DNA of 20,762 nucleotides from a virus (lineage: Duplodnaviria; Heunggongvirae; Uroviricota; Caudoviricetes). Positions 4,111 through 19,699 of the stretch are shown piece after piece. The translations under genes were made by a program, and so were the position numbers. A model generated the notes under the pieces. The model ran no database searches, was not told the origin of the DNA, and saw only the letters and a list, made by a program, of their open reading frames with translations. The DNA lies in the IMG/VR virus record IMGVR_UViG_2718218128_000001; one strand, written 5' to 3'. How positions within the stretch are numbered: the first letter of the stretch is position 1; each line of letters starts with the position of its first letter.

Positions 4111-4590
4111 TGTGGTGTCCGCTACGCTGCAGCGCCTTTTCGCGCCATGTGATGAGCTCGGTCAGGCTCAGGGAATAGAGCTCTGATAGCGGCCAGTGGA
4201 ATATCACCGCGATATCCGCCATCAGGTCATCGGTCGACAGGTCGGGCGGGAAATCTACTCCGCCGAAGCCGGTGACAAAAAACCAATCACCTTAGCGGCC
4301 AGCGACAGCATATCGGGCAGGTTCATTGCGGTAAGCTCCTGCGCCGTAAGCGCGGGGTAGGTCATGCGTGGCAATACCTTAATCAGCGCATCGACTTCGG
4401 ACTGCGCCACCGCTGCCAGACTGACACCGCGCAGGGTACCGGCGTTCGGCTCAATCAGTGTGACTTTATCAATCGTCTGACCGGCGCGCTTAATCGGCTT
4501 GTCGAGGGTCACGACGTTCGGGTTTACGGTGTCAGTTTCATTGCCAGCCATATCAACAAATTCAGCGGTTTTACGTGGTGCTTTTGCCAT
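4103..4590 (-). CDS. E: E+E' tail assembly chaperone, programmed -1 frameshift product
   Basis: After a -1 slip at ggT-TTT-TTG, the reading frame continues as VTGFGGVDFPPDLSTDDLMADIAVIFHWPLSELYSLSLTELITWREKALQRSGHHNE and stops at TAA (4103..4105), overlapping the T start. This is the conserved E/E' arrangement of P2-like phages. Confidence 0.72.
4255..4590 (-). CDS. E: Tail assembly chaperone E (zero-frame product)
   Basis: Small ORF immediately upstream of T, ending just after a T-TTT-TTG slippery heptamer. Contains a TLDKPIKRAG...LIEPNAG segment typical of the gpE family as I recall it. The true start may be M1 (4590) or M14 (4551). Confidence 0.78.
   Translation of the reverse strand: MAKAPRKTAEFVDMAGNETDTVNPNVVTLDKPIKRAGQTIDKVTLIEPNAGTLRGVSLAAVAQSEVDALIKVLPRMTYPALTAQELTAMNLPDMLSLAAKVIGFLSPASAE
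4276..4282 (-). other. Slippery heptamer T TTT TTG for the E/E' -1 frameshift
   Basis: Plus-strand CAAAAAA at 4276..4282 is TTTTTTG on the minus strand, in frame as ggT TTT TTG within E. This is the same heptamer used by P2 E/E' as I recall it. Confidence 0.7.
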
Positions 4591-5135
4591 GATGTTTTTC
4601 TCTGCTCTGAATGGGGATTAATAACAGGCCAGCAGTGCTGACCGGTTAGGGAATTGTCCTGCAGACGCGAGACCGACCAGCGCATATCCCGCCACAGGTC
4701 ATCAATGGTGGTTTCGACGCTGTCGGCTTTTTTGTCACCCTTACCCGTGGCCTCAACCCCGCGATAACGCTCATACAGGGTGGCGGTCGCCATCGCCGTC
4801 ACGGCGCTGAGGTAGTGGAAAACGCGCACATTCTCGCCGTCGATTTCCTCGGCGTCAGGCACGTCGGCCAGTGTCTTAAACCCTGCGGCAATCTGGCGCA
4901 GCCGGTAGTCGTAAAGCTCCGCATTGGTTTCCGCCATGCCGGTCTTGATGGCGTTGCGCAGGCGCGCATCGGAAACCGTCTGCTCAAGGCGCATCAGTTC
5001 GCGCACCCGCTTCGGATCCACATCAGGGAAAAAGAACGTGTTTTTAATCACTGCGTCGCCCGTCTCCGGTGCGGGAATCACCACGCCCGGTACGTCCTGC
5101 GGTTCGTCGGGCTGATTCAGTATTACTGTCGTCAT
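4524..5135 (-). CDS. L: Head completion/stabilisation protein L with an aberrant C-terminal extension
   Basis: ORF directly downstream of terminase small subunit M, as in P2. The first ~165 aa look protein-like. The last ~40 aa (NSLTGQHCWPVINPHSEQRKTSWQKHHV...) are translated across the start region of E in another frame and look like read-through. Confidence 0.65.
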   Translation of the reverse strand: MTTVILNQPDEPQDVPGVVIPAPETGDAVIKNTFFFPDVDPKRVRELMRLEQTVSDARLRNAIKTGMAETNAELYDYRLRQIAAGFKTLADVPDAEEIDGENVRVFHYLSAVTAMATATLYERYRGVEATGKGDKKADSVETTIDDLWRDMRWSVSRLQDNSLTGQHCWPVINPHSEQRKTSWQKHHVKPLNLLIWLAMKLTP

Positions 5136-7125: not shown

Positions 7126-7980
7126 TCAGCAGTCGGTCAGCAGCTCATCGCCACCACCGCCGCTGGCTTTCGTGCGTCGCGGCTGGCTGAAACTTTCGGT
7201 TTTATCGAGGGTGGTTTTCAGGTCGGAAAATGCCTGGCTGGTTTCTTCAACCTTGCCGGTCAGTTCCTGTTTGAAAGTGGCAAACGCGGTTTCCATAGCG
7301 GAAAGGCGCTCGTCCTGTTTTGTCAGGTTGGTTTGCACATGTTCGCTGACGGTGGTCACCGCTTCATGCACATCATTCAGGCGCGCATCGTCGCTGACCT
7401 GCTTACGGCTGAAAATGGCTTTCACCTTATCGGCCAGGCTGTTGAGCACCGTGTCGGGAACGTCTTCAAACTCCAGCTCGGCCAGAGTGGCAGCGGAAAA
7501 GACGTTTTCAGGGTTGGCCTTAAAGCGTTGCAGCGGGTTGTGCTTCGCGTTGCGGCAGAATTCGAGGTATTCAGTGCCGAGGCTCGCCGGGTCATCGGTG
7601 ACAGCAAGGCCGACGAGGTAGCATTTGCCGGTATTGGCAAAATTCGGCTGAATTTCCATTGAGGTGTAGACCTTCTGCAATTTTTTATTCATCGCAATCA
7701 GGTCGTCGGTTGGGGTGATTCTGGCGAACAGCGCCCATTTGCCGTTAAGCGCAGAATCGTCGTCAATTATTTCAGCTTTCAGTTCAACCACATCGCCTAA
7801 GCGTTTGAAGTCGCCATCAGGAAAGAGACCGCGAATATGCTCAAGGTTAATGCGGCAACCGTAGACGCGAGGGTCAAACGATTCGGCCATTTCCTGAATA
7901 TCGTTGCCGCTGATAATGCGGCCGTCGCAGGTGTCACCCTCGACGCCGATGCGAAAGAATTTTGAGACTTTTTTTGCCAT
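7126..7980 (-). CDS. O: Capsid scaffolding protein
   Basis: 284-aa ORF (P2 gpO is 284 aa), divergent from the terminase gene P as in P2. ATG start. Confidence 0.86.
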   Translation of the reverse strand: MAKKVSKFFRIGVEGDTCDGRIISGNDIQEMAESFDPRVYGCRINLEHIRGLFPDGDFKRLGDVVELKAEIIDDDSALNGKWALFARITPTDDLIAMNKKLQKVYTSMEIQPNFANTGKCYLVGLAVTDDPASLGTEYLEFCRNAKHNPLQRFKANPENVFSAATLAELEFEDVPDTVLNSLADKVKAIFSRKQVSDDARLNDVHEAVTTVSEHVQTNLTKQDERLSAMETAFATFKQELTGKVEETSQAFSDLKTTLDKTESFSQPRRTKASGGGGDELLTDC

Positions 7981-8145
7981 TGTCAGGAGTCCTGAGGTTA
8001 AGGTTACTGGTCACCGCCAGTTTCCAGACTCAGGACACGCCAGACCACCAATGACGACTGGACAACCGCCCACACAACAGCACCTTAGCGAATCACTGAC
8101 GGCCATTAAGTAGCCTTGCCCTGAATCCACTACGGCGAGGCATCA

Positions 8146-9915
8146 ATGACCATTTCCACAGATACAACCTTGTTGCATGACCCGCGACGGCAGGCATCGC
8201 TGCTTTACTGGCAGGGTTTTTCCGTGCCACAGATTGCCGAAATGCTGCAGGTCAAGCGCCCGACCGTGCAGAGCTGGAAGCAGCGCGACGGCTGGGACGG
8301 CATCGCGCCGATTTCCCGCGTTGAAAGCAGCCTTGAGGCTAGGCTGATTCAGCTCATCGCCAAGCCGCAAAAGACAGGGGGTGATTTCAAAGAGATTGAC
8401 CTGCTCGGACGGCAGATTGAACGGTTGGCGCGAGTCAACCGCTACAGCCAGACCGGCAACGAAGCCGACCTTAACCCCAACGTCGCCAACCGCAACAAAG
8501 GGGAGCGCAAAAAGCCGAAAAAGAATTTTTTCAGCGACGAGTCTATCGATAAACTAGAGGAATTATTTTTCGACCAGTCTTTCGAGTACCAGTTGCAGTG
8601 GTACCGCGCAGGACTGGAGCACCGTATTCGTGACATTCTCAAATCCCGCCAGATTGGCGCGACATTCTATTTCTCCCGCGAGGCACTGCTGCGCGCACTC
8701 AAAACCGGCCATAACCAGATATTTTTATCAGCCAGTAAAACGCAGGCTTACGTGTTCCGCGAATACATCATCCAGTTTGCGCGACTGGTCGACGTTGACC
8801 TGACTGGCGACCCGATTGTCATCGGTAACAACGGCGCAAAACTGATTTTTCTCGGTACCAATTCCAACACCGCGCAGAGCCATAACGGCGATCTGTATGT
8901 CGATGAAATATTCTGGATCCCGAATTTTCAGAAACTGCGCAAAGTCGCCTCGGGCATGGCCTCGCAAAAGCACCTGCGCTCGACCTATTTTTCGACACCT
9001 TCCACGCTGGCGCACGGCGCTTACCCCTTCTGGTCTGGCGAGCTGTTCAACAAGGGGCGCAGCCGGATTGCCGACCGCATCGAAATCGACATCAGTCACA
9101 GCGCGCTCGCCGGTGGCCAGCTCTGCGACGATGGCCAGTGGCGGCAGATTGTCACCATTGAGGACGCCCTTGCGGGTGGCTGCACCCTGTTCGACCTCGA
9201 CCAGCTCAAACGCGAAAACAGTGATGAGGACTTTAAGAACCTGTTTATGTGCGAGTTTGTCGACGATAAAGCGTCGGTATTCCCGTTCGAGGAGCTGCAG
9301 CGCTGCATGGTCGATGTGATGGAGGAATGGGAGGACTTTGCCCCGTTCGCCGACCATCCGTTCGGCTCTCGTCCTGTCTGGATTGGCTACGACCCGTCAC
9401 ACACCGGCGACAGTGCCGGGTGCGTCGTGCTCGCGCCGCCGGTGGTCTCTGGTGGCAAGTTCCGCATGCTGGAGCGCCACCAGTGGAAGGGCATGGATTT
9501 TGCAGCACAGGCAGAGGGCATCCGCAAGCTGACCGAGAAATACAACGTTGAATACATCGGCATTGACGCAACCGGCCTCGGTCTCGGCGTGTTCCAGCTG
9601 GTGCGCTCATTTTACCCGGCGGCACGCGGCATCCGTTACACACCTGAAATGAAAACCGCAATGGTACTCAAGGCGAAAGACACCATTCGCCGTGGCTGTC
9701 TGGAGTACGACGCCGGAGCAACCGACGTCACGCAGTCGTTTATGTCCATCCGCAAAACCATGACTAGCAGCGGGCGCAGCGCCACCTATGAGGCCAGCCG
9801 CACCGAGGAAGCCAGCCACGCCGATATCGCATGGGCGACCATGCACGCCCTGTTAAACGAACCGCTTTCTGCCGGTAGCGGCATGCAGCCTAAATCTATT
9901 CTGGAGTTCAACTAA
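8146..9915 (+). CDS. P: Terminase large (ATPase) subunit
   Basis: 589-aa ORF (P2 gpP about 590 aa), divergent from O and immediately followed by the portal gene (2-nt spacing). Confidence 0.9.
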   Translation: MTISTDTTLLHDPRRQASLLYWQGFSVPQIAEMLQVKRPTVQSWKQRDGWDGIAPISRVESSLEARLIQLIAKPQKTGGDFKEIDLLGRQIERLARVNRYSQTGNEADLNPNVANRNKGERKKPKKNFFSDESIDKLEELFFDQSFEYQLQWYRAGLEHRIRDILKSRQIGATFYFSREALLRALKTGHNQIFLSASKTQAYVFREYIIQFARLVDVDLTGDPIVIGNNGAKLIFLGTNSNTAQSHNGDLYVDEIFWIPNFQKLRKVASGMASQKHLRSTYFSTPSTLAHGAYPFWSGELFNKGRSRIADRIEIDISHSALAGGQLCDDGQWRQIVTIEDALAGGCTLFDLDQLKRENSDEDFKNLFMCEFVDDKASVFPFEELQRCMVDVMEEWEDFAPFADHPFGSRPVWIGYDPSHTGDSAGCVVLAPPVVSGGKFRMLERHQWKGMDFAAQAEGIRKLTEKYNVEYIGIDATGLGLGVFQLVRSFYPAARGIRYTPEMKTAMVLKAKDTIRRGCLEYDAGATDVTQSFMSIRKTMTSSGRSATYEASRTEEASHADIAWATMHALLNEPLSAGSGMQPKSILEFN

Positions 9916-9916
9916 A

Positions 9917-10963
9917 ATGGGTAAACAAAAATCCCGTAAAGCCAACGCACAAAAGGCCAGCAAACCACAACAACTGACCGCCAGCGCACCGCCAAAAACG
10001 ACAGCGTTCACCTTCGGCGAGCCGGTGCCGGTACTCGATAAGCGCGACATTCTGGATTACGTCGAATGCATCAGTAACGGCAAATGGTACGAGCCGCCGG
10101 TCAGCTTCTCAGGGCTGGCAAAGAGCCTGCGCTCTGCCGTGCATCACAGCTCGCCAATTTATGTTAAGCGTAACGTGCTCGCGAGCACCTACATTCCGCA
10201 CCCGTTGTTATCCCGTCAGGATTTCAGCCGCTTTGCGCTCGATTATCTGGTGTTCGGTAACGCCTTTCTTGAGCAGCGCCACAGCGTCACCGGCCAGTTA
10301 ATCAAACTGCTGGCCTCGCCAGCCAAATACACCCGACGCGGAGTCGACGATTCGATTTTCTGGTTTGTGGAAAACTTCACCCAGCCGCACGAGTTCGCGC
10401 CTGATACCGTGTTTCACCTGCTGGAGCCCGACATTAATCAGGAGATTTACGGTCTGCCGGAATATCTCAGCGCGCTTAATTCCGCTTGGCTGAATGAATC
10501 CGCGACGCTGTTCCGCCGCAAGTATTATCAGAACGGCGCGCACGCAGGCTACATCATGTATGTGACTGACCCGGCGCAAAGTGCGACCGACGTCGAATCG
10601 CTGCGCGAGGCGATGCGTAACTCGAAGGGACTCGGCAACTTTAAGAACCTGTTTTTCTACGCCCCCGGCGGAAAACCGGACGGCATCAAAATCGTGCCAC
10701 TGAGCGAGGTCGCCACAAAGGATGACTTTTTCAACATTAAGAAAGCCAGCGCCGCCGACCTGATGGACGCGCACCGCGTACCGTTCCAGCTCATGGGCGG
10801 CAAGCCCGAGAATATCGGTTCACTCGGTGACGTTGAGAAGGTGGCAAAGGTATTTGTGCGCAATGAGCTGTCGCCGCTACAGGACAGGTTCAGGGAGGTA
10901 AACGACTGGCTCGGCATGGAGGTCATCAGGTTCAAAGAGTACACCCTCGATAATCCGGAATAA
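9917..10963 (+). CDS. Q: Portal protein
   Basis: 348-aa ORF (P2 gpQ about 344 aa) downstream of P. ATG start at 9917. Confidence 0.9.
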   Translation: MGKQKSRKANAQKASKPQQLTASAPPKTTAFTFGEPVPVLDKRDILDYVECISNGKWYEPPVSFSGLAKSLRSAVHHSSPIYVKRNVLASTYIPHPLLSRQDFSRFALDYLVFGNAFLEQRHSVTGQLIKLLASPAKYTRRGVDDSIFWFVENFTQPHEFAPDTVFHLLEPDINQEIYGLPEYLSALNSAWLNESATLFRRKYYQNGAHAGYIMYVTDPAQSATDVESLREAMRNSKGLGNFKNLFFYAPGGKPDGIKIVPLSEVATKDDFFNIKKASAADLMDAHRVPFQLMGGKPENIGSLGDVEKVAKVFVRNELSPLQDRFREVNDWLGMEVIRFKEYTLDNPE

Positions 10964-10973
10964 TCACCACTCT

Positions 10974-10992
10974 AGCCGCCAGCATGGCGGCT
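10974..10992. terminator. GC-rich hairpin between convergent Q and the cargo gene (possible bidirectional terminator)
   Basis: AGCCGCC-agcat-GGCGGCT is a perfect 7-bp stem with a 5-nt loop, lying between the Q stop (10961..10963) and the convergent stop at 10994..10996. There is no U-tract, so this is weak as an intrinsic terminator. Confidence 0.3.
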
Positions 10993-10993
10993 C

Positions 10994-11719
10994 TCAATCG
11001 TGAGTGGATATTTGCGAAACAAACTCTTTAACTCCATCTCGTTCAAGTATTTTACTGTCATGGATATACTTTACGATATCCCACTCGTAGTATGTACAAG
11101 CCATTGCAACTAAAGATATTATTTTTATGTCAGTTAAGTTAACTAATGTTTCATAATAATCTTCCCGTTCAACCCCGCAATTATCTATCAACTTCACAAT
11201 CAAATAAAAGCGACGCACCACTGAAAAAATGCAATCATTAGCATCCACTTCACTTAACCACTTTGTTATTACCTCTTTTTTTACCTTGGCTTTAACTAAA
11301 ATTACAATATTATCTTCAAGATAAGTTACGGCTGCACCACTTGTAAATTCTTCGACCACCCCGTCAGTTTGTCCATCAATATCACCAACTTGAACACAAA
11401 ACCTTTCAAAGTTAGAATCCTGACATTCAACCAAATGGAAAAATCTCACTTCAAATTTTTTATACTCTTCTAAAGATTCTTGCCTTTTTACTTCATCGAT
11501 CAGGCTGGAATTAGCCTCCCTTTGAAGTTTTATTGAATTTATAAGGAGGTAAATTGTAATAAATGAAAGTATAGGGTTGACGACACCACCCAAATAATCA
11601 CCAAACTGCGCCCAAACATCAGTCTTGCTGGATAAATGTCCGTTTACTCCGAAGTTGAAGTAATACAAGGCGCACACAGCTACAATCACGCCAGCCGAAG
11701 ACAGCAACACCTTTCTCAT
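10994..11719 (-). CDS. Hypothetical membrane protein of cargo cassette: two N-terminal TM helices plus ~180-aa soluble domain; candidate effector
   Basis: 241-aa ORF with ATG start overlapping the upstream gene's stop (ATGA). Hydrophobic segments at about residues 5-25 and 44-62. The region is AT-rich, unlike the phage backbone. No family recognised by eye. Confidence 0.6.
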   Translation of the reverse strand: MRKVLLSSAGVIVAVCALYYFNFGVNGHLSSKTDVWAQFGDYLGGVVNPILSFITIYLLINSIKLQREANSSLIDEVKRQESLEEYKKFEVRFFHLVECQDSNFERFCVQVGDIDGQTDGVVEEFTSGAAVTYLEDNIVILVKAKVKKEVITKWLSEVDANDCIFSVVRRFYLIVKLIDNCGVEREDYYETLVNLTDIKIISLVAMACTYYEWDIVKYIHDSKILERDGVKEFVSQISTHD

Positions 11720-12534
11720 ACAGTTTCAACCATACGGATTAGATATTTCACCACATCACCACTTTTTACTACAACTTTGCTAACAGTAAGTTTTAGATAT
11801 GTGTAGTTATCTTGCCTGCCATTATTATTGTGTAAATTTAATGAGACCAATCTTTTTTGAGCGGCGGGTATAGCCTTTAAAGGCATGTAAAAACCAAAGG
11901 CTACTGTATCATCTTCACCTTCGATAACTAACCTACCATTTCCAGTTCTCGCATTAAATCGAGTAATAACTGCGTTAATATTAACTTGACCGGGCTTTAT
12001 TTTTGATTGTGTCAAGTTTGTAGCAGTCATTGTGTCTAACTTTGCTATTCTTTGTTTTCCAGCAGGTTTTTTATAGTTAAGTTCAACATCAAAGTTTTTT
12101 TGAAGATTTATCCTATGCATCCTTACCAAAGGTTGTCTGATACGATCAATAAGTTCATCTTCAATTTCCTCAAGCTCCTCAATAATTCCTGCAGCTTTTG
12201 GAGATAGCTCCTTAGTTTCCAGATATAGAGATTCAGAAATAAAATACCCCATGACTTCCGAGAACACAGAACGGGTCATTTTTTTTAATTCGGCAGCTAA
12301 TTCCGGCTCATTAACAATCAAGTCGAAGTTTTGACCATAAGAACTTTTAAAGCTTTGTTTGAGAACCGCTCGCGCAGGGTTAACATGAGTGCGGCGCTTA
12401 ATAATTTTTTTTCTGAGTATTGCCTCTGCTAGTATGCATGTCACCTCAGCCGTTCCAGAGAGGGTATCAAGGCCATACTCCATATCAACTTCTTGATCAC
12501 CACTTTTGATGACAACGTCATAGCTAACTTTCAT
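11716..12534 (-). CDS. Hypothetical soluble protein of cargo cassette; candidate sensor or enzymatic component
   Basis: The ORF track starts at GTG (12540). The ATG two codons in (12534) is preceded by AAGGA at 7-nt spacing, giving about 272 aa. No TM segments, and no nucleotidyltransferase or nuclease motif recognised by eye. AT-rich. Confidence 0.6.
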   Translation of the reverse strand: MKVSYDVVIKSGDQEVDMEYGLDTLSGTAEVTCILAEAILRKKIIKRRTHVNPARAVLKQSFKSSYGQNFDLIVNEPELAAELKKMTRSVFSEVMGYFISESLYLETKELSPKAAGIIEELEEIEDELIDRIRQPLVRMHRINLQKNFDVELNYKKPAGKQRIAKLDTMTATNLTQSKIKPGQVNINAVITRFNARTGNGRLVIEGEDDTVAFGFYMPLKAIPAAQKRLVSLNLHNNNGRQDNYTYLKLTVSKVVVKSGDVVKYLIRMVETV

Positions 12535-12597
12535 CGGCACATCCTTGATTTAGTAACCTTTGGTTATTATTTTTCATCTTCTACTCATTGACACCGA

Positions 12598-12626
12598 TTT
12601 TTTACACCAAAAATATCAAATTGCAA
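12598..12626 (-). promoter_or_regulatory. Candidate sigma70 promoter for the cargo cassette
   Basis: Minus strand reads TTGCAA, a 16-nt spacer, then TAAAAA, about 60 nt upstream of the cargo start codon, in an AT-rich leader. Found by eye only. Confidence 0.3.
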
Positions 12627-12642
12627 GTGTGTGCTGCGCGCA

Positions 12643-12661
12643 ATGCTTTCCCCGCCACGCC
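12643..12661. other. cos-like site (19-nt cohesive end sequence)
   Basis: Plus-strand ATGCTTTCCCCGCCACGCC is the reverse complement of GGCGTGGCGGGGAAAGCAT. That matches my recollection of the phage 186 cohesive end and differs at 2 positions from P2 (GGCGAGGCGGGGAAAGCAC). It lies in a ~450-bp non-coding GC-rich stretch, in the expected place between Q and A. Confidence 0.6.
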
Positions 12662-12826
12662 TGCCCGCTTTACGGGGCGGTTTTAATGCAGTTGCATGAA
12701 CACTCGGGATCCGCGCCAGCTCTGGCGGCGCACGGTCAGAACGGGCAACCCCTGCGAATGCAAAAGCATGCACCTGTTGCATGCACGGCTAAAAACGGGG
12801 AAATCGCGGAAAAATGGCATAAAAAA

Positions 12827-12845
12827 CCGGCATTCACGGTGCCGG
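12827..12845 (-). terminator. Rho-independent terminator for minus-strand transcription
   Basis: CCGGCA-ttcacgg-TGCCGG hairpin flanked by AAAAAA on the plus side, which is a TTTTTT tract after the stem on the minus strand. It lies downstream of the small minus-strand ORF at 12986..13177. Confidence 0.45.
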
Positions 12846-12985
12846 TTTGGGGCTGGTTTTGTCGCGATTACTGGGCGTGTAATGCGCCAATAACACTATT
12901 GAGGCACATGCTGGCAAAAATCAGCAGAAAAATCGTCGTCCACCGATTTTCATAAACGAGAGATAACATATTGATATAGATCCTT

Positions 12986-13177
12986 TTATTTGTGCATTCT
13001 AATGTGGTTTAACAGGTGTTTGATAACGACCGTAAGCTCATCTTTACTGGCTTGCTCGACCATTTTTTCGGTGTAGCTTTCCACCTCACGAGAACTCAGG
13101 TCGTTATTTGAAGCCATTACGGTCAGCTTTTTTGCCCAATCGGCAAACGGGTCTATCGATGAAAGGGAATTATGCAT
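12986..13177 (-). CDS. Small hypothetical protein (about 63 aa from the internal ATG)
   Basis: ORF with a GAGG Shine-Dalgarno-like sequence upstream of the ATG at 13177 and a terminator-like hairpin downstream. The start overlaps the divergent gene's start on an ATGCAT palindrome. No family recognised. Confidence 0.3.
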   Translation of the reverse strand: MHNSLSSIDPFADWAKKLTVMASNNDLSSREVESYTEKMVEQASKDELTVVIKHLLNHIRMHK

Positions 13178-13607
13178 GTCCAAAAACCTCGAATTATTTA
13201 ACCAGCAGACGGCGGAAATTTTTGCGGTGTTATGGGATAACTTCCCGGTGCCGCAGGTCATCACCTACGAAAAATTTAACGCCGTGCTACCTGATGACTA
13301 CTTTGACCAACTTAACTCACCGGAAATGAAAGCACTGAATCAGTTGCGTAGTGTGGTTGAGGGTACATTCACTTTTCTCAGTGAAAACGGCTACATCCAA
13401 TATGAAACAGACCATCAGACTTATTTTCGGGATGTGCGCCTGACCGAGAAAGCACTCGCCGTGCTCAACAAAAAGCCCGAGGCACTCGGCGGTAGTGAAA
13501 CGATGGGCGATAAGATTATCAGTGCGGTGAAAGACGGGACACCCGGAGTTATTGCAGGTGCGGTGACAAACCTGCTTTCACTCGGTGTCAATCTGGTAAC
13601 CAACTAA
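13176..13607 (+). CDS. Hypothetical protein, 143 aa (accessory gene)
   Basis: ATG start with a good AAGGGA Shine-Dalgarno sequence 7 nt upstream. It is on the opposite strand to the flanking phage operons and has a hydrophobic C-terminal segment (GVIAGAVTNLLSLGVNLV). No family recognised. Confidence 0.5.
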   Translation: MSKNLELFNQQTAEIFAVLWDNFPVPQVITYEKFNAVLPDDYFDQLNSPEMKALNQLRSVVEGTFTFLSENGYIQYETDHQTYFRDVRLTEKALAVLNKKPEALGGSETMGDKIISAVKDGTPGVIAGAVTNLLSLGVNLVTN

Positions 13608-13673
13608 CGCCTCGCGTGGCTCGTTGTTCAACCCGTCAGCACTGAAAGCAAGTTTCAGCACCGGCGGCGTTTG

Positions 13674-13907
13674 TTAATGCAGCCAGCTATCGTCCTCCCA
13701 TACCTGCTGCATGATTTCCATTACTCGTTTTTTATCTTCGTCCAGTTTCAAACCGCTTAGTTCAACGCCATTAGCGGAGCCCTTGCGAATTCGGATAGCA
13801 GTCTTTGGGTAAATAGGTTGAAGATTGCGGTACAGTTCAGCCTCAAGTGCATCCAATGTTGCCTGACTAATTTTTTGCTCTTTATCCAACGTGATATTGA
13901 TTCTCAT
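13674..13907 (-). CDS. DinI-family protein (Tum-like antirepressor candidate)
   Basis: 77 aa, alignable by eye to E. coli DinI: MRI.VT. at the N-terminus, DAL..EL.R..Q in the middle, EDK.R..EI.Q..WE near the C-terminus. Downstream of a LexA box. Confidence 0.8.
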   Translation of the reverse strand: MRINITLDKEQKISQATLDALEAELYRNLQPIYPKTAIRIRKGSANGVELSGLKLDEDKKRVMEIMQQVWEDDSWLH

Positions 13908-13910
13908 AAT

Positions 13911-14093
13911 CTAATCAGCCTTATAAAAATTATCATCTTCGGTTTCGTTATTTTCGCTGTTTGCTAGGTCTGCAATGAGAGTGAGCGCGAGCTTTAAGTC
14001 TGATGGCTTGCAGTTTGCAATCAGAGATACCTCGGCAATAAATTGCACACAAGCCCACTTTTGCTGCGTTCGGCTGAAATGTTCGCCAACCAT
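13911..14093 (-). CDS. Small hypothetical protein (60 aa), first gene of the LexA-box operon
   Basis: ATG start preceded by a strong GGGAGGGA Shine-Dalgarno sequence. Its stop lies 3 nt before the DinI-like start, suggesting coupling. The LexA box is about 20 nt upstream. Confidence 0.45.
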   Translation of the reverse strand: MVGEHFSRTQQKWACVQFIAEVSLIANCKPSDLKLALTLIADLANSENNETEDDNFYKAD

Positions 14094-14112
14094 GAAATCC
14101 CTCCCATAGGGT

Positions 14113-14132
14113 TACTGTATGTTTATACAGTA
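14113..14132. promoter_or_regulatory. LexA (SOS) box
   Basis: TACTGTATGTTTATACAGTA has perfect CTGT-N8-ACAG spacing and matches 17 of 20 positions of the consensus TACTGTATATATATACAGTA. It sits between the stop of gene A and the 60-aa/DinI-like operon. Confidence 0.75.
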
Positions 14133-14206
14133 GCACGTATTGGCAAAAGATGGGAAGAAAAAAAACGAATAGAGCGATTGCTGTATGTGCATGATATGGA
14201 TATGAA

Positions 14207-16429
14207 TTACTCATGTATTGGTTTTGATTCTTCAGCCATCGCCGCAACACGATTAAGGATTTTCCGAGCTTTAGCCTCATGCGATGGTGCTGCGGAAAAT
14301 ATTTCTCCTTTGGCCGTTCCGCGTAGCCATTTACCATCAAAACAACTTTTACCACCGGCCATCAGGTGCAGGGCTTCGCCCCGGCTGATATTAATGCCGG
14401 TTGTCAGATGTATCTCATCGATAGTTTTAGCTATAGCTGCGTTTTGCTCATCCGTTCCGTGGATGAATTTTCGCCGTGCTGCTGGCTTTTGCTTCCTGAG
14501 TCGGTTGGTCAATTCTCGTCTTTCACGCCGACTCAGTGGTTTTGTTAAATCCAGTATCGGTGGATCGCTTTCGCTTCCCGTACAGTTATTGACAGAACTC
14601 CGAGGGACGGCTTTGCCGTCCTGAAGGTCAACGGCCAAATCAACAGCACGCTTCGGAACAATCTTCCACTGAGTGAGCCGGGTTAAAATCGGGCTTCCTG
14701 CACCTATGGAGGAATCGTAGACCCCCTTAATACATACCGTTTCCTCACCGTACTGATTAAGCTCGGTACGCGGTTCATACAGTGTGCGCACCTGTAAATC
14801 ATCGCGACGGACAAACGGCCCACCCTGAGCATTAACATAACCAGCCCAGTCACCAGCGTCGGCGGCATCATGGACGGCGGCAAACTCAACGCTCAGACCG
14901 TGCGCGGTTTCGGTATCAGCGAGGCGACGCAACTCACGGTAAACCGTCACCGGCGCACCACCAATAAACTGAAACTGACGGATGTGCCAGCGCGCAGCCC
15001 ATGCTGAAACGGCGGGGGCTGTCTCTTTCAGCAGCTCACCGCTTTCATCATCGGTTTCACCATCGAGAGCATAACCGTCGATATTTTTTGAAATGTATTT
15101 AGCAACATAGCCGGTTGCGCTGCCTTTCTCCGGGTCAATGGACTCCGCGTGGAAACGTGCTTTTTGGGATTTATCGCTTTTCAGTTCGTGGCGGTCTTCT
15201 TTCCATGCGTATTTACGGACGATGGAGCGAACATATTCAACATCTTCCGGCAGCATGAACATCAGCATGTGCCAGTGTGGAGTGCCGTCGTGATGGGGCT
15301 CGGCGACACGAATACCGAAAATACGGACATCTTCCCGATGTAGTTTGGCACGGATACGCGCCCAGATACCGGTTAGATAGTTTTGCGTGTCAGCCGGGCT
15401 GGCACCGCTCCATTTGCTGTTACGGTAACCGGCTTTAGTCGTGGCGTGATATTTTGACGGCGCGGTTAGAGTGTAAAACTCACCGACATAACCGAGCTCA
15501 TTACAGATGTTTTCAAACCCACGAATGCGGGTCATGAGCTCACAGCGGCGAATCGCAGGGTTAGCAACTGAGCCATCATATTTTTCAATTAGGCTGATAC
15601 GGTTGCCGTCTTCGTCTTCGAGATCCAGACCTTTGAGAAATTCACGAGTGCGGCGCTTTTGTTCACGCCAGTCAGTCACGCAGTTTTTACTCGCGTAAGT
15701 GTTTTTTTTCTTACTGACGTTGCCGACTGCAATTTGCAGGTGTTCGCGCCACGTAGCTGCTACACGGCGCAAACGACCGCGCCACCACCCATCGTTAAAC
15801 ATTTTGGCGATAGCCGGTGCGATTTCATCCGCACCGACATATTTTTTTTCAACCCGCTCCCAATGTGGTGGGATAACGTTGAATTGGAGGGAAATAAAGC
15901 CAGCACGAATATACCAGGTGTACAGCGTTTTAAGCTCGCCGAATCCGTGGTCATTAATGTTGGCAAGTTCACCACGAATGAAATTAGCAATATCAGCGGC
16001 CAACAGGTCAACATCAGCGCGCGACATGTCCGGGAGACGGTTATATCGGGCGACCATATTAACCATGCGTGACGACAGATATTGCATTTGCTGAGTATCA
16101 AAATGACTTCCAAAAACAGCGGTTGATACCTTGCTGTTGATACCAGCGCATTCGTATTTTTTTGCGACCAGTTCAAGACGCGGCAATGCCTTTTTGCAGA
16201 AGCTGATTAAAAATGCATTGGCTCGTTGACTACCCTGATTTTGTTCCAGCACCGCAGCAGTGCGATAAACATCTAACCGCACGCAGTCGGGCTGGAGAGA
16301 AAGCACCTTTTTTGCATGCAGCAAAGCCGCGAACATACGGTCGCGGCGATGCTGTTGCTCATAAGTAAGGTATGGGCTGGAGATTGCCGACCGTGGGACG
16401 TTCCACGGATAAGCGAATTGAACAGCCAA
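14207..16429 (-). CDS. A: Replication initiation protein A (rolling-circle HUH endonuclease)
   Basis: 740-aa ORF (P2 gpA about 761 aa) with an HUH motif (GTPHWHMLMF) and a Tyr-containing active-site-like region (GYVAKYISKNIDGY). The ORF as drawn starts at TTG, so the exact start is uncertain. Confidence 0.9.
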   Translation of the reverse strand: MAVQFAYPWNVPRSAISSPYLTYEQQHRRDRMFAALLHAKKVLSLQPDCVRLDVYRTAAVLEQNQGSQRANAFLISFCKKALPRLELVAKKYECAGINSKVSTAVFGSHFDTQQMQYLSSRMVNMVARYNRLPDMSRADVDLLAADIANFIRGELANINDHGFGELKTLYTWYIRAGFISLQFNVIPPHWERVEKKYVGADEIAPAIAKMFNDGWWRGRLRRVAATWREHLQIAVGNVSKKKNTYASKNCVTDWREQKRRTREFLKGLDLEDEDGNRISLIEKYDGSVANPAIRRCELMTRIRGFENICNELGYVGEFYTLTAPSKYHATTKAGYRNSKWSGASPADTQNYLTGIWARIRAKLHREDVRIFGIRVAEPHHDGTPHWHMLMFMLPEDVEYVRSIVRKYAWKEDRHELKSDKSQKARFHAESIDPEKGSATGYVAKYISKNIDGYALDGETDDESGELLKETAPAVSAWAARWHIRQFQFIGGAPVTVYRELRRLADTETAHGLSVEFAAVHDAADAGDWAGYVNAQGGPFVRRDDLQVRTLYEPRTELNQYGEETVCIKGVYDSSIGAGSPILTRLTQWKIVPKRAVDLAVDLQDGKAVPRSSVNNCTGSESDPPILDLTKPLSRRERRELTNRLRKQKPAARRKFIHGTDEQNAAIAKTIDEIHLTTGINISRGEALHLMAGGKSCFDGKWLRGTAKGEIFSAAPSHEAKARKILNRVAAMAEESKPIHE

Positions 16430-16430
16430 T

Positions 16431-16652
16431 TTATACCCCCCGATAGTGTTTGTTTTTTAGCTCTGCGATTTGCTGGCAGGTTACGCAAAAAGCCACGCCC
16501 GGAATCGCAATGCGGCGAGCTTCCGGGATTGGTGCGTCACATTCCTCGCAAAGAAAACGGGAAGGTGCAGCGATACGGGTGCGTGCGTTGCTGATGTGGC
16601 GTTCGCGGTCTTCCTGCTCGCGCAGTTGTGCTAAATCCATTGCGTCGGCCAT
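16431..16652 (-). CDS. TraR/DksA-family C4 zinc finger protein
   Basis: 73 aa with CEEC-x17-CVTC at the C-terminus. It sits immediately upstream of gene A, where P2-like phages carry a small zinc finger ORF. Confidence 0.7.
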   Translation of the reverse strand: MADAMDLAQLREQEDRERHISNARTRIAAPSRFLCEECDAPIPEARRIAIPGVAFCVTCQQIAELKNKHYRGV

Positions 16653-17456: not shown

Positions 17457-17966
17457 TCAAATCAGACCAAACGATGCGCCAATACCGCTCATGGTATCGA
17501 CCACGCTCGACATAGCTGGATTAGTCTGCAGACGTGCATGCAGAGCCAGAGCCGACAATGACAACATGCGAATGCCGGAGTTAACGCTTTCAATCATGTT
17601 GTGCTTACGGGCAATGGTCAGACGTTCATCAGATACCGCGCCGCTCGCCAGTTCGCCGAGTTCACGCATTGCGCGCATGACATAAGACTGCAATTTGTCT
17701 TTAGCCAACTCATTAACCGGCACGCATGGTAGGCAGTGAATCTGCGCTAAAAAACCATCAATGAGGGTTGAGTCTTCGGTCAGGTCAGTCAGCAGCCACA
17801 ATTCAGACGGCGTGAACTGGTGAGGCTGTTCCGGGTTGAGCTTGTTACGTAACGTTTGAACGTTCATACCTGCACGCTTGGCCAGCTTCGCCATATTGTG
17901 ACGCTGTGCGAAAATGCGGCATGCTTCGTCATAGTGGGGATGTTTGGAAACCTGAAAATCAAACAT
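17457..17966 (-). CDS. cII: Phage regulatory protein CII (186-type)
   Basis: The ORF track starts at TTG (17996). The ATG at 17966 has an AGAGGGAA Shine-Dalgarno sequence and gives 169 aa beginning MFDFQVSKHPHYDEA, matching my recollection of 186 CII in both length and sequence. Confidence 0.75.
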   Translation of the reverse strand: MFDFQVSKHPHYDEACRIFAQRHNMAKLAKRAGMNVQTLRNKLNPEQPHQFTPSELWLLTDLTEDSTLIDGFLAQIHCLPCVPVNELAKDKLQSYVMRAMRELGELASGAVSDERLTIARKHNMIESVNSGIRMLSLSALALHARLQTNPAMSSVVDTMSGIGASFGLI

Positions 17967-17998
17967 GGTTAAATTCCCTCTAACTTGCATAATCAAAT

Positions 17999-18370
17999 TC
18001 AGTTAAGAGCGGTGCGCTGGTCGATGTAGCGACAATCAATCGCTTGTTGAGTCAGCTTATCGCGCCATGCTTTTACGTTTACGAGGGTTCGGCTTCGTTT
18101 AGCAGCTTCCTCTTTGTTGGAAAAGTCTTTGGTCGGAGCTTTGAGAAGGACTCCCTCATCGAGCCATTGCCAGACCAGACGCTCGCTAACACCGCGAGTA
18201 GCGGCGAAGTCTTTCACAGTCATCGTGTCTGACATAGCGGAGCGAATCATTGTCTGTAGAGCTGGCAGCATGGCGGTAACGATGGCATCAAACTGTGTTG
18301 GATCTAGCAGCACAGTTTGATTTTGTGAGTTTTGCGAGTCGTGCGTCGAGATTGATTTTGCATCTGACAT
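17999..18370 (-). CDS. Apl/Cox-like excisionase or early regulator (putative)
   Basis: First gene of the early operon, divergent from the repressor gene. Contains an HTH-like segment (MTVKDFAATRGVSERLVWQWLDEG). At 123 aa it is longer than 186 Apl or P2 Cox, so the start may be internal. Confidence 0.45.
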   Translation of the reverse strand: MSDAKSISTHDSQNSQNQTVLLDPTQFDAIVTAMLPALQTMIRSAMSDTMTVKDFAATRGVSERLVWQWLDEGVLLKAPTKDFSNKEEAAKRSRTLVNVKAWRDKLTQQAIDCRYIDQRTALN

Positions 18371-18491
18371 ATCGCATTATCTCCTGTTGTTTGAAATGTA
18401 GTGCAGTGGTGTGCATCTTGGTCGATGAATGCCACTATAGATCGTAAAAAGTTTTCTGTAAACACCCATAAAATTATCTGTAGGGGTTTTT
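18371..18491. promoter_or_regulatory. Lysis-lysogeny switch region (divergent promoters and operators)
   Basis: 121-bp intergenic region between the divergent Apl/Cox-like and CI-like genes. CTGTA-containing motifs recur (ttctgtaaac, atctgtaggg) and there is a TGCA-N7-TGCA element. Individual operators not resolved. Confidence 0.4.
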
Positions 18492-19352
18492 ATGAGTTCT
18501 GAGCTTGATGTTCAGTGGCGTGTTAGTGCAACGAACGGCGTATTGGAACGCTTAATGTCAGCCTATGGGGTCAAGATGCAAAAGGATTTGGCTGACCTGC
18601 TAGGTATCGCTAAACACAGCGTTAGCGGCTGGGTTCAGCGTGATGCAATACCTGGCAATGTCATAGTTAGGTGTTGTCTTGACACGGGAGCTGATATCAA
18701 TTGGCTTGTAAATGGAGAACTTGCAAATGCAAATCACGAGCGAGCCAGTTGCAAGTTAAAAGGCAAAGAGCTTTATGACGAGATTATGACGAATGGTGGT
18801 AAAACCGTTTTGCGTAGGATTCTTGATGCGTATGGCTTTACCATGCAAAAGGAGCTCGGTGATTTGCTCGGCATTTCCTCTGGCACAATTAGCACATGGG
18901 TAAGGCGAGATTTTTTCCCTGGTGATGTTGTTGTTACATGCGCTCTTGATACCGATACGTCACTGGAATGGTTAGCAACAGGCAAGGGGCAAATGCGAGC
19001 TAACAGGGAAGATGTCACATCTGGTTTTTCTATTAAAAAATCTCGTCTTGAATCTGGTGAGCTTAAGGATGCAGGAACGTGGCATCCTGACCCCTCAATG
19101 ATTCCTTCTAACTCAGGGGAATTGATTTTTGTTGACGGTGTAGCTGCCTCTTGGCTTGTCGACTGTTCTGCTTCGAATATAAGTAATGGTCGCTGGTTAA
19201 TTGATATCGACGGCGCTCTTGATGTTTTTGATGTAATTCGCTTGCCCGGTGGAAAAGTCAGGTTGTCAAATAAGTCTGCTGAGTTTGAATGCAACATTAC
19301 AGACATTACTCCTGCCGGGGCTGTAGTTTTCACATTGGAAAAACACGTGTAA
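18492..19352 (+). CDS. cI: CI-type immunity repressor with duplicated N-terminal HTH domain
   Basis: 286 aa, same strand as integrase and divergent from the early operon. Residues ~14-75 and ~105-166 are clear internal repeats (LERLMSAYGVKMQKDLADLLGI..SGWV.RD versus LRRILDAYGFTMQKELGDLLGI..STWVRRD). No GDSM-like serine motif was seen in the C-terminal domain. Confidence 0.7.
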   Translation: MSSELDVQWRVSATNGVLERLMSAYGVKMQKDLADLLGIAKHSVSGWVQRDAIPGNVIVRCCLDTGADINWLVNGELANANHERASCKLKGKELYDEIMTNGGKTVLRRILDAYGFTMQKELGDLLGISSGTISTWVRRDFFPGDVVVTCALDTDTSLEWLATGKGQMRANREDVTSGFSIKKSRLESGELKDAGTWHPDPSMIPSNSGELIFVDGVAASWLVDCSASNISNGRWLIDIDGALDVFDVIRLPGGKVRLSNKSAEFECNITDITPAGAVVFTLEKHV

Positions 19353-19360
19353 GGGACATT

Positions 19361-19699
19361 ATGAAATGTAAACTCTTTTTAGCTCTGCTTCTTACCCTTT
19401 CTTTTGGAGCCTCAGCCGCTGAAAAAACACAGGATTTAGATGGCGCTAAGTTTGGTGAGGATTGGCCGTTAACTTTTGAAAAAGCTACGGTGTCTTGTGT
19501 CAACGGTAAATATGCCTTTGTGTACGACAAAGCAACAGATGACCGATACCCATTAAATGGTTTTGCGATTGATGGAGTAAAGTCTGGAAAGCTTGAGGGG
19601 AGCAATATTGATACTGTTTGGAAAGATAGCCCGGAGTATGCAGGCGTAAAAATTCCTTTGGATCCTGTAATGGATGCTGCAACAGCACTTTGGGAATAA
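19361..19699 (+). CDS. Small secreted protein (signal peptide), possibly YebY/DUF2511-like; moron candidate
   Basis: ATG at 19361 gives MKCKLFLALLLTLSFGASA followed by AEK, a typical Sec signal peptide. The mature region has W..F...TVSC..G and YPLNG, resembling YebY-type periplasmic proteins from memory. Lies between the repressor and integrase genes. Confidence 0.5.
   Translation: MKCKLFLALLLTLSFGASAAEKTQDLDGAKFGEDWPLTFEKATVSCVNGKYAFVYDKATDDRYPLNGFAIDGVKSGKLEGSNIDTVWKDSPEYAGVKIPLDPVMDAATALWE

Follow-up and report, generated by a model that had tools for sequence, protein, structure and literature searches.

Two paralogous helix-turn-helix heads in a PSP3-type phage immunity repressor and their possible assignment to separate operators

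A 20,762-nucleotide stretch of caudoviral DNA (IMG/VR record IMGVR_UViG_2718218128_000001), referred to throughout as the window, contains at positions 18492 to 19352 a gene for a CI-type immunity repressor with two tandem helix-turn-helix (HTH) domains. The reading developed here, which we hold with somewhat more confidence than doubt, is that this is the CI of a PSP3-type (186-like, Eganvirus) prophage in which the N-terminal head, HTH1, reads the lytic promoter pR and the second head, HTH2, reads auxiliary palindromes. The stronger form of the proposal, that two paralogous heads serve separate regulons, with a fast-evolving HTH1 swapped together with its pR cassette and a frozen HTH2 kept on the auxiliary palindromes, is given a little less than an even chance. 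The gene and the parts of its product are as follows.

18492..19352, + strand: cI, a 286-residue PSP3-type immunity repressor in the order HTH1, linker, HTH2, linker, CI_C, assigned from its open reading frame (ORF), Pfam matches, identity to PSP3 and a match to PDB entry 2FJR.
18540..18719, + strand: HTH1 (residues 17-76), the extra N-terminal HTH, with recognition helix AKHSVSGWVQRD, variable among relatives.
18720..18764, + strand: linker 1 (residues 77-91), flexible in the structural model, whose coding DNA holds the FL' palindrome described below.
18765..18998, + strand: HTH2 (residues 92-169; Pfam stretch 106-169), with recognition helix SSGTISTWVRRD, nearly invariant.
19029..19322, + strand: CI_C domain (residues 180-277), a predicted 186-type oligomerisation domain with a distantly LexA-like fold lacking the Ser/Lys pair.

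Pfam searches placed the protein in the 186 CI family rather than an unrelated one, with PF07022 (Phage_CI_repr) matched in two stretches (E=1.3e-52 overall; best stretch residues 106-169) and a single PF16452 (Phage_CI_C) match at residues 180-277 (E=1e-20). A first-pass annotation, made from the sequence alone, had described two homologous segments of about 60 residues, and at the protein level this was confirmed by BLASTP self-comparison, in which residues ∼14-76 and ∼101-165 share 34/66 identities (52%, E=2e-23). Its figure of 286 residues, against about 190 for 186 CI, also agrees with the ORF and with the 192 residues of 186 CI. HTH1 and HTH2 are 50% identical to one another and only 40% and 35% identical, respectively, to the 186 N-terminal domain. 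When 186 CI (PDB 2FJR) was compared with the window protein using phmmer, it aligned to residues 105-280 only, that is, to HTH2 and the C-terminal domain (CTD; E=6e-22), and the added domain is therefore the N-terminal HTH1. HTH2 is the counterpart of the single HTH in 186 CI and in the 196-residue relatives considered below. With two HTHs and 286 residues the protein departs from the one-HTH-per-subunit form (∼190 residues) of 186-type CIs, and its layout defines a PSP3-type sub-family of them. An AlphaFold 2 (AF2) monomer model showed three folded domains (mean pLDDT 80.5, pTM 0.40) with low-confidence linkers at residues 77-86 (pLDDT <50) and 171-177. Heads that act independently would fit this model, which carried no information on how the domains pack and was set aside for that purpose.

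The statement that the two segments are clearly homologous at the DNA level as well proved overstated. Aligned in codon register, the two HTH coding copies share 55% of their nucleotides (58/73/33% at codon positions 1/2/3), compared with no more than 36% at every other in-frame offset, and BLASTN of cI against itself returned a single 32-nucleotide match (75%, E=0.09). A DNA dot plot, considered as evidence for duplication, was discarded as giving a marginal signal only. Judged by this codon pattern, the DNA likeness of the copies is a residue left by protein constraint. Synonymous sites between them are near saturation, indicating that the duplication is old.

The cI region is 96-98% identical in DNA to phages vB_EcoM-613R3 (613R3), SEN1 and PSP3, with cI itself 96% identical in nucleotides to the cI of Salmonella phage PSP3, a gene for 286 residues that carries the annotation 'CI; immunity repressor' (AAN08403, orf29). 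PSP3, SEN1 and 613R3 share the HTH1 helix of the window CI and presumably have the same immunity. A word-indexed search returned 731 homologues; nearly all of the best 120 are 267-290 residues long with the same domains, and their hosts include Klebsiella, Enterobacter, Salmonella, Escherichia, Citrobacter, Pantoea, Cronobacter, Brenneria and others. CIs with two HTHs occur in hundreds of clusters, with identities as low as 41%. When representatives clustered at 50% identity were scanned in full with HMMER, several clusters of ∼285-294 residues were recovered; most of the matches were ∼190-residue proteins with a single HTH, aligned to CI residues ∼100-283. In a genome scan, peptide patterns taken from HTH2 retrieved 80 loci from as many Enterobacterales species, a set thus ascertained on HTH2, and after addition of the window and phage loci 71 double-HTH loci were available for comparison. 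The ∼280-residue architecture is present in prophages of more than 70 Enterobacterales species. On this distribution, the duplication is not peculiar to the window gene and is an old, conserved architecture of the family. Tandem HTHs were also found in other CI lineages (P0137; P0196 and P0184), where the copies within a protein are 54-70% alike, above their likeness to the window copies, which points to repeated independent duplications or concerted evolution. The search reported three matched HTH stretches in P0184 and P0199, and P0214 is an unrelated protein of 525 residues that has about six HTH repeats and lacks CI_C. Head duplication seems to be recurrent in the CI family.

The two heads of the PSP3-type repressors are conserved to very different degrees. 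In an alignment of 25 homologues, mean pairwise identity was 0.80 for HTH2, 0.55 for HTH1 and 0.48 for the CTD, making HTH2 the most conserved part of CI; HTH2 identity exceeded HTH1 identity in 278/300 pairs, and in the helix regions the values were 0.83 for HTH2 (GISSGTISTWVRR) and 0.51 for HTH1. The order was the same when the comparison was limited to the window and the full-scan HMMER representatives (HTH2 0.69, HTH1 0.47, CTD 0.32). At least 35 HTH1 recognition-helix variants were counted in the 71 loci, and an S/T-x-W-x-R-R helix pattern is common to HTH1, HTH2 and 186 CI.

The variable head is encoded next to a variable promoter region, where three features were recognised.

18434..18462, - strand: pR-like lytic promoter, TTTACA-17-TATAGT, directed towards the Cox/Apl analogue and cII.
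18440..18754: immunity cassette of ∼315 bp that takes in the spacer and -35 of pR, the start of cI, and the coding DNA of HTH1 and linker 1.
18448..18482: two direct repeats 22 bp apart, AAAGTTTTCTGTA at 18448-18460 and AAAATTATCTGTA at 18470-18482, as candidate operators of HTH1.

The pR-like promoter is strong and σ70-like, lies 30 bp from the cI start and occupies the same place relative to that start as 186 pR. Comparison of the window with phage Midge showed 84-100% identity from the cox analogue through 18439, 18-69% over 18440-18754 and 76-96% from the HTH2 start onward. Across the 71 loci each HTH1 helix variant is accompanied by a distinct repeat over the spacer and -35 of pR, such as ATCGCAAATGCGAT, TCGCAAAATGCGA, ATCGTAAAAACGAT and CCGTTTTT...AAAAACGG; in Midge the repeat is direct, AAATCGAwwwTGAGT, with a spacing of 22 bp. 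Loci with the same helix and different inter-promoter classes keep the pR element (L018/L048, L025/L050/L059, L012/L053). Operator-region identity was correlated with helix identity (Mantel r=0.73, with 0/2000 permutations as high), including when left-flank and HTH2+CTD identities were controlled (partial rank r=0.54), and was 0.72 for same-helix pairs with unlike left flanks as against 0.51 for unlike-helix pairs with like flanks. These patterns suggest that HTH1 and the pR operator region vary together and are exchanged as a ∼315-bp cassette, and HTH1 would accordingly be named as the immunity-specificity head. Of the two effects that had been proposed for a duplicated DNA-binding domain, altered immunity specificity is thus favoured over altered operator spacing by the co-variation of HTH1 and pR and the near-invariance of HTH2.

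The two direct repeats of the window can be put forward as HTH1 operators only with low confidence. Their 22-bp spacing matches the two-turn phasing of the 186 pR operators (PMC3675496). They were retained from a motif, TTNTCTGTAR, that has three copies in the window, all in the switch region (expected 0.17), and that was itself rejected as an operator for poor conservation: PSP3 and L006 have a changed form of the copy at 18474, and Pantoea relatives do not conserve it. Of the three copies, only the pair spaced by 22 bp was kept as candidates. A search of the PSP3 genome for further copies of the pR-type sequences found none. The sequence beside the pR -10 starts with GATCG in nearly all types and continues with a type-specific part; GATCG was considered as an HTH2 half-site and dropped for want of a second argument, as it may be promoter context.

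The proposed targets of HTH2 are copies of a short palindrome, two of which lie in the window.

18721..18732: FL', an exact palindrome TTGCAAATGCAA inside cI, formed by the Leu-Ala-Asn-Ala codons of linker 1 and placed like 186 FL.
17985..17996: FR', TTGCATAATCAA, which departs from the palindrome at two positions and lies between the stop of the cox analogue and the start of cII, in the place of 186 FR.

At up to one mismatch the pattern TTGCAWWTGCAA has a single match in the window, the exact copy at 18721-18732. A copy of FL' with up to two mismatches stands at a fixed position, +178/+186, in 62/71 loci against a sparse background elsewhere. The codons that form it are nearly fixed, Leu being CTT in 27/28 loci (background 0.19), Asn AAT in 48/49 (background 0.60), and the two Ala codons GCA in 52/54 and 33/41 (background 0.21 each); the adjoining Gly, Glu and Thr codons vary freely. 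Lineages with the linkers QIANLNLQD and EFDNSHLQT have a one-mismatch copy shifted by 8 nucleotides and set in other codons. Since synonymous choices are fixed and the copy is kept in another codon context, selection acts on the DNA. By analogy with 186, FL' would be an operator of HTH2. In Serratia (loci L029-L044 and L065) an HTH2 helix GISSGTMSTW, with Ile changed to Met, occurs consistently with the FL' variant TTGCAAAAGCAA, which may represent covariation between the HTH2 helix and its operator.

A second palindrome cluster, at -530..-560, is present in 25/71 loci and is exact in L073. Searched at up to one mismatch, the whole PSP3 genome (AY135486) contains two matches, both exact, one in cI and one at 21281-21292, upstream of the late activator gene pag, where it overlaps the -35 of a TTGCAA-16-TATTAT promoter. 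In Midge, which has a different HTH1, and in 613R3 an exact copy likewise overlaps the late-activator promoter, upstream of ogr. Phage SW9, with a third HTH1 type, has an exact site in cI and a degenerate copy at the cII junction, together with an identical HTH2 helix and a TumA that is 98% identical. These positions are those of the annotated 186 CI sites FL (cI linker codons), FR (apl/cII junction) and pB, which read TTCAC-N5-GTGAA. A different arrangement was seen in the single-HTH CIs of Rahnella and Ewingella prophages (P0133; loci L075-L085). These 196-residue proteins, whose HTH and CTD are 52% identical to window CI residues 101-285, have an HTH2-type recognition helix, LSSGTISTWVRR, and CTTGCATTTGCAAG-like palindromes fill the 17-nucleotide spacer of a TTGACA/TAGATT promoter, their pR. 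A single HTH with the palindrome in the pR spacer looks like the ancestral arrangement.

Induction of the prophage was considered from the CTD and from a module elsewhere in the window.

14115..14130: LexA box, CTGTATGTTTATACAG on the + strand and CTGTATAAACATACAG on the tumA strand, about 20 nucleotides upstream of tumA.
13911-14093, - strand: tumA, named from the PSP3 annotation, of the SOS-controlled antirepressor module.
13674-13907, - strand: tumB, DinI-like (PF06183, E=7e-24).

The CTD model superposes on the 186 CTD (2FKD_A) with a Foldseek TMt of 0.89 and a root-mean-square deviation of 1.6 Å at ∼27-29% identity, and is only distantly similar to LexA, lambda CI and UmuD (TMt about 0.55-0.61). 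The earlier reading that no Ser-Lys signature is evident held up: Pfam gave no Peptidase_S24 (PF00717) match in CI at E≤0.1, and hhalign set E. coli LexA Ser119 on Ala217 and Lys156 on Phe246, in an alignment of only 32.6% probability. The column aligned to the LexA Ser is unconserved in the 25-sequence family consensus. DPSM (residues 200-203) was examined as a degenerate GDSM active site and rejected, as it aligns to LexA VDPSLF instead of the catalytic Ser, and its Ser is unconserved. By these comparisons the CI CTD is without the LexA-type Ser/Lys pair and is not an autoprotease. The LexA box is the sole copy of CTGT-N8-ACAG in the window, and a TumA of 98-100% identity occurs in exactly those ten phage records that have this CI family. 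Phage 186 is induced by LexA-controlled Tum (PMC7708051). With the box, tumA and a DinI-like tumB present and the catalytic pair absent, antirepressor-driven induction, as the first-pass annotation had suggested, is well supported as a prediction from the sequence.

The mechanism that we favour can be put together from these parts. HTH1 would read immunity-specific operators over the pR spacer and -35 (about 18440-18483) and so repress the lytic operon of the cox analogue and cII, while HTH2 would read TTGCAAATGCAA at FL', at FR' and, outside the window, at the promoter of the late activator pag/ogr. The CTD would oligomerise in the manner of 186 CI, which forms a seven-dimer wheel able to wrap or loop DNA, and pR could thereby be bridged to its flanking sites or wrapped with them; SOS induction would proceed through Tum acting on a conserved part of CI, not through self-cleavage. 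In evolution, a single-HTH CI with a TTGCA palindrome at pR may have duplicated its head, after which the new head and the pR operators would have diversified together. New immunities would then arise by swaps of the ∼315-bp cassette, with the auxiliary operators, oligomerisation and Tum sensitivity unchanged.

Several observations weigh against this mechanism. Both assignments, of HTH2 to the palindrome and of HTH1 to pR, rest on position and covariation, and the AF2 monomer supplies no inter-domain geometry (pTM 0.40). HTH1 coding DNA adjoins pR, and linkage in mosaic genomes could yield the covariation with no functional cause. A clear palindromic operator at pR is not visible for the helix type of the window; Pantoea relatives that share the helix conserve the second candidate repeat, AAAATTATCTGTA, poorly, and the third TTNTCTGTAR copy, at 18250, is absent from PSP3, whose CI is the same. 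FL' lies within the divergent cassette and is absent in 9/71 loci, and FR' is degenerate (two mismatches in the window) and present in only 25/71. Finally, the retrieval of the 80 genome loci through HTH2 means that those loci alone are no proof of HTH2 conservation.

Among the alternatives, the one that fares best, though we regard it as unlikely, is that CI acts as a single-chain pseudo-dimer, HTH1 and HTH2 of one subunit occupying the two halves of each operator; the duplication would then alter half-site composition or spacing and would not split the targets between promoters. A linker of ∼15 low-confidence residues would permit adjacent binding, the sequence beside the pR -10 opens with a near-universal GATCG and continues with a type-specific part, and the window pR spacer is not a clean palindrome. 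Yet TTGCAAATGCAA and many of the pR elements (ATCGCAAATGCGAT, ATCGTAAAAACGAT, TCGCAAAATGCGA) are symmetric, as fits two identical heads, the window has no TTGCA half-site at pR, and GATCG may be mere promoter context.

Less probable again is that only HTH1 binds DNA, HTH2 being a structural or docking domain, such as the Tum target or a dimer contact, and the TTGCA palindromes being bound by another factor or serving as promoter elements. Phage recognition domains are indeed not usually as conserved as HTH2, the palindrome at the pag promoter also supplies the -35 hexamer, and TumA keeps 98-100% identity among phages of three HTH1 types, so that its target is likely to be a conserved part of CI. 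On the other hand, the HTH2-type domain is the only DNA-binding head of the single-HTH relatives, which have the palindrome in their pR spacer, and HTH2 retains the S/T-x-W-x-R-R pattern. FL' is no promoter and is nevertheless held by codon choice, and all three site positions match known 186 CI sites. That the duplication is recent, accidental and without function, or was created by assembly in a contig that does have a 9.4-kb deletion relative to PSP3 elsewhere, is refuted by the same 286-residue gene in PSP3, SEN1 and 613R3 and in hundreds of clusters to 41% identity, by near-saturated synonymous sites between the copies, and by two HTH domains that are both intact and modelled with good confidence.

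Further genes and signals were placed around cI.

18352..18380, + strand: possible pL-like lysogenic promoter, TTGATT-17-CATTAT, overlapping the cox-analogue start codon and below the promoter-scan threshold.
17999..18370, - strand: Cox/Apl analogue of 123 residues, of the PSP3 gp30 type (gp30 has 117), first gene of the lytic operon.
17457..17966, - strand: cII, of the 186 CII / CP76 family (PF06892, E=4e-46).
19361-19699, + strand: DUF2511/YebY-like gene of the lysogenic operon, between cI and int, with a signal-peptide-like N-terminus.
19722 to the window end (20762), + strand: integrase, in the lysogenic operon.

The arrangement of the pL-like promoter recurs in related loci, and its equivalence to 186 pL is assumed by analogy. 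No Pfam family was matched by the Cox/Apl analogue; in the record of Midge, HHpred similarity to a DNA-binding protein of Mesorhizobium R7A is noted. The program-made ORF of cII begins at TTG 17996, and the conserved MFDFQ start corresponds to ATG 17966, which is the likely start from sequence conservation; starting there leaves a 32-nucleotide gap to the cox analogue that contains FR'. The DUF2511/YebY-like gene is presumably expressed from the lysogenic operon, and in L089 and L090 an unrelated gene of ∼130 residues takes its place.

Between the pR-like and pL-like promoters, at 18401-18417, direct repeats GTGCAGTGGT / GTGCATCTTG stand one helical turn apart; they are kept in many loci, with an alternative class, GTTCTATGGTGTTACATGTGGTGTGT, in others. 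By analogy with 186 Apl (PMC7498355) they are likely to be binding sites of the Cox/Apl analogue. These GTGCA-N5-GTGCA repeats were also considered as HTH2 sites and rejected: the one-turn spacing fits the Cox/Apl analogue better, and the second class of this region in other loci is independent of HTH2. Inside the cox analogue a 14-nucleotide inverted repeat, ATCAAACTGTGTTG / CAGCACAGTTTGAT (18287-18321), is 93% complementary; it is weaker in Midge and PSP3 and is therefore probably due to chance.

Two further departures from PSP3 lie away from the switch. At a junction at 4654/4655, within an ORF at 4524..5135 (- strand), the window lacks PSP3 7222-16609, ∼9.4 kb that includes X, holin, endolysin, lysB/C, R, S, V, W, J, I, H, G, FI and FII. 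Clean and with 1-2 nucleotides of microhomology, the junction (AATT|GTCC) fuses gene L to the end of FII; either the prophage is defective and without tail and lysis genes, or the sequence was spliced or collapsed. Positions 10992-13602, adjoining cos in a variable region, have no PSP3 homology and hold overlapping - strand ORFs at 10994-11719 (241 residues, with an N-terminal hydrophobic segment) and 11716-12540 (274 residues), and others at 12986-13264 (- strand) and 13176-13607 (+ strand). None of these ORFs had a Pfam match and PADLOC gave only a weak ZorB hit (E=0.002); a role in cargo or defence is possible for them.

Few alternatives to the lambda switch are understood quantitatively, and that of 186 is among them. 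The single HTH of 186 CI reportedly recognises two distinct operator types, as described by Shearwin and colleagues in 2002. If the two-head mechanism is true, domain duplication followed by neofunctionalisation would be a natural way for new immunity types to emerge, and the family would show heteroimmune phages arising with no rewiring of looping, oligomerisation or induction. A resident CI should then bind the FL', FR' and late-activator sites of heteroimmune relatives, dampening late genes in the absence of classical immunity, and co-resident, nominally heteroimmune prophages in Klebsiella, Enterobacter, Salmonella and E. coli would be partially cross-regulated. For synthetic circuits the family would offer orthogonal, swappable DNA-binding cassettes on a common scaffold. 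If the mechanism is wrong, the window cI is no more than an ordinary copy of the PSP3 gene. Databases have contained this gene, with its two-domain Pfam architecture, ever since the sequencing of PSP3, and as a sequence feature it is known and ordinary. Nilsson et al. 2011 noted that PsP3 CI has 'a longer C-terminal domain' than 186 CI (PMC3448106), and beyond that paper the literature searched gave no description of a tandem HTH in PSP3 or 186-type CIs. Searchable papers likewise yielded no characterisation of the PSP3, SEN1, 613R3, Midge, RCIP0057 or SW9 repressors, and no account of the extra length as a second HTH, of asymmetric head evolution, or of the palindrome in cI and at 186-like positions.

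Of the known systems, 186 (CI PDB 2FJR, 2FKD) is the closest. The window shares with it the PF07022 and PF16452 domains, with a CTD that superposes on 2FKD, the gene order int, cI, convergent promoters, apl analogue and cII, a palindromic operator in the pR spacer within the family, and a Tum module, behind a LexA box, that is predicted to take the place of self-cleavage. Candidate auxiliary sites in linker-coding cI, at the cII junction and, in the relatives, at the late-activator promoter stand where the 186 sites do. The window phage differs in having two HTHs and 286 residues instead of one and 192, TTGCA-AA-TGCAA instead of TTCAC-N5-GTGAA as operator, pR operators that appear to be read by a separate, variable head, and a Tum split into TumA and TumB; moreover, its type of Apl analogue is unrelated in sequence to 186 Apl (PMC3448106). 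The CIs of PSP3, SEN1, vB_EcoM-613R3, Midge, RCIP0057 and SW9 belong to the same family and have the same architecture, with Midge/RCIP0057 and SW9/SI22 carrying other HTH1 helices and pR regions and the same HTH2, FL', FR' and TumA. The Rahnella/Ewingella CIs share the TTGCA palindrome and differ in having one HTH and the palindrome in the pR spacer. P2 C-type repressors (C of ∼99 residues, binding direct repeats) show no similarity, the Pfam and PDB matches being to the 186 CI family only. Lambda CI and LexA share an N-terminal HTH and a C-terminal β domain of distantly similar fold, whereas the window CI lacks an S24 Pfam match, has both catalytic positions substituted and is predicted to be induced by an antirepressor. 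Engineered single-chain 434 repressors and eukaryotic POU domains likewise tether two lambda/434-like HTH modules of separable specificities through a flexible linker, and place both modules on one composite site; in the window CI, by contrast, the evidence favours separate sets of sites, and the repressor would also oligomerise through its third domain.

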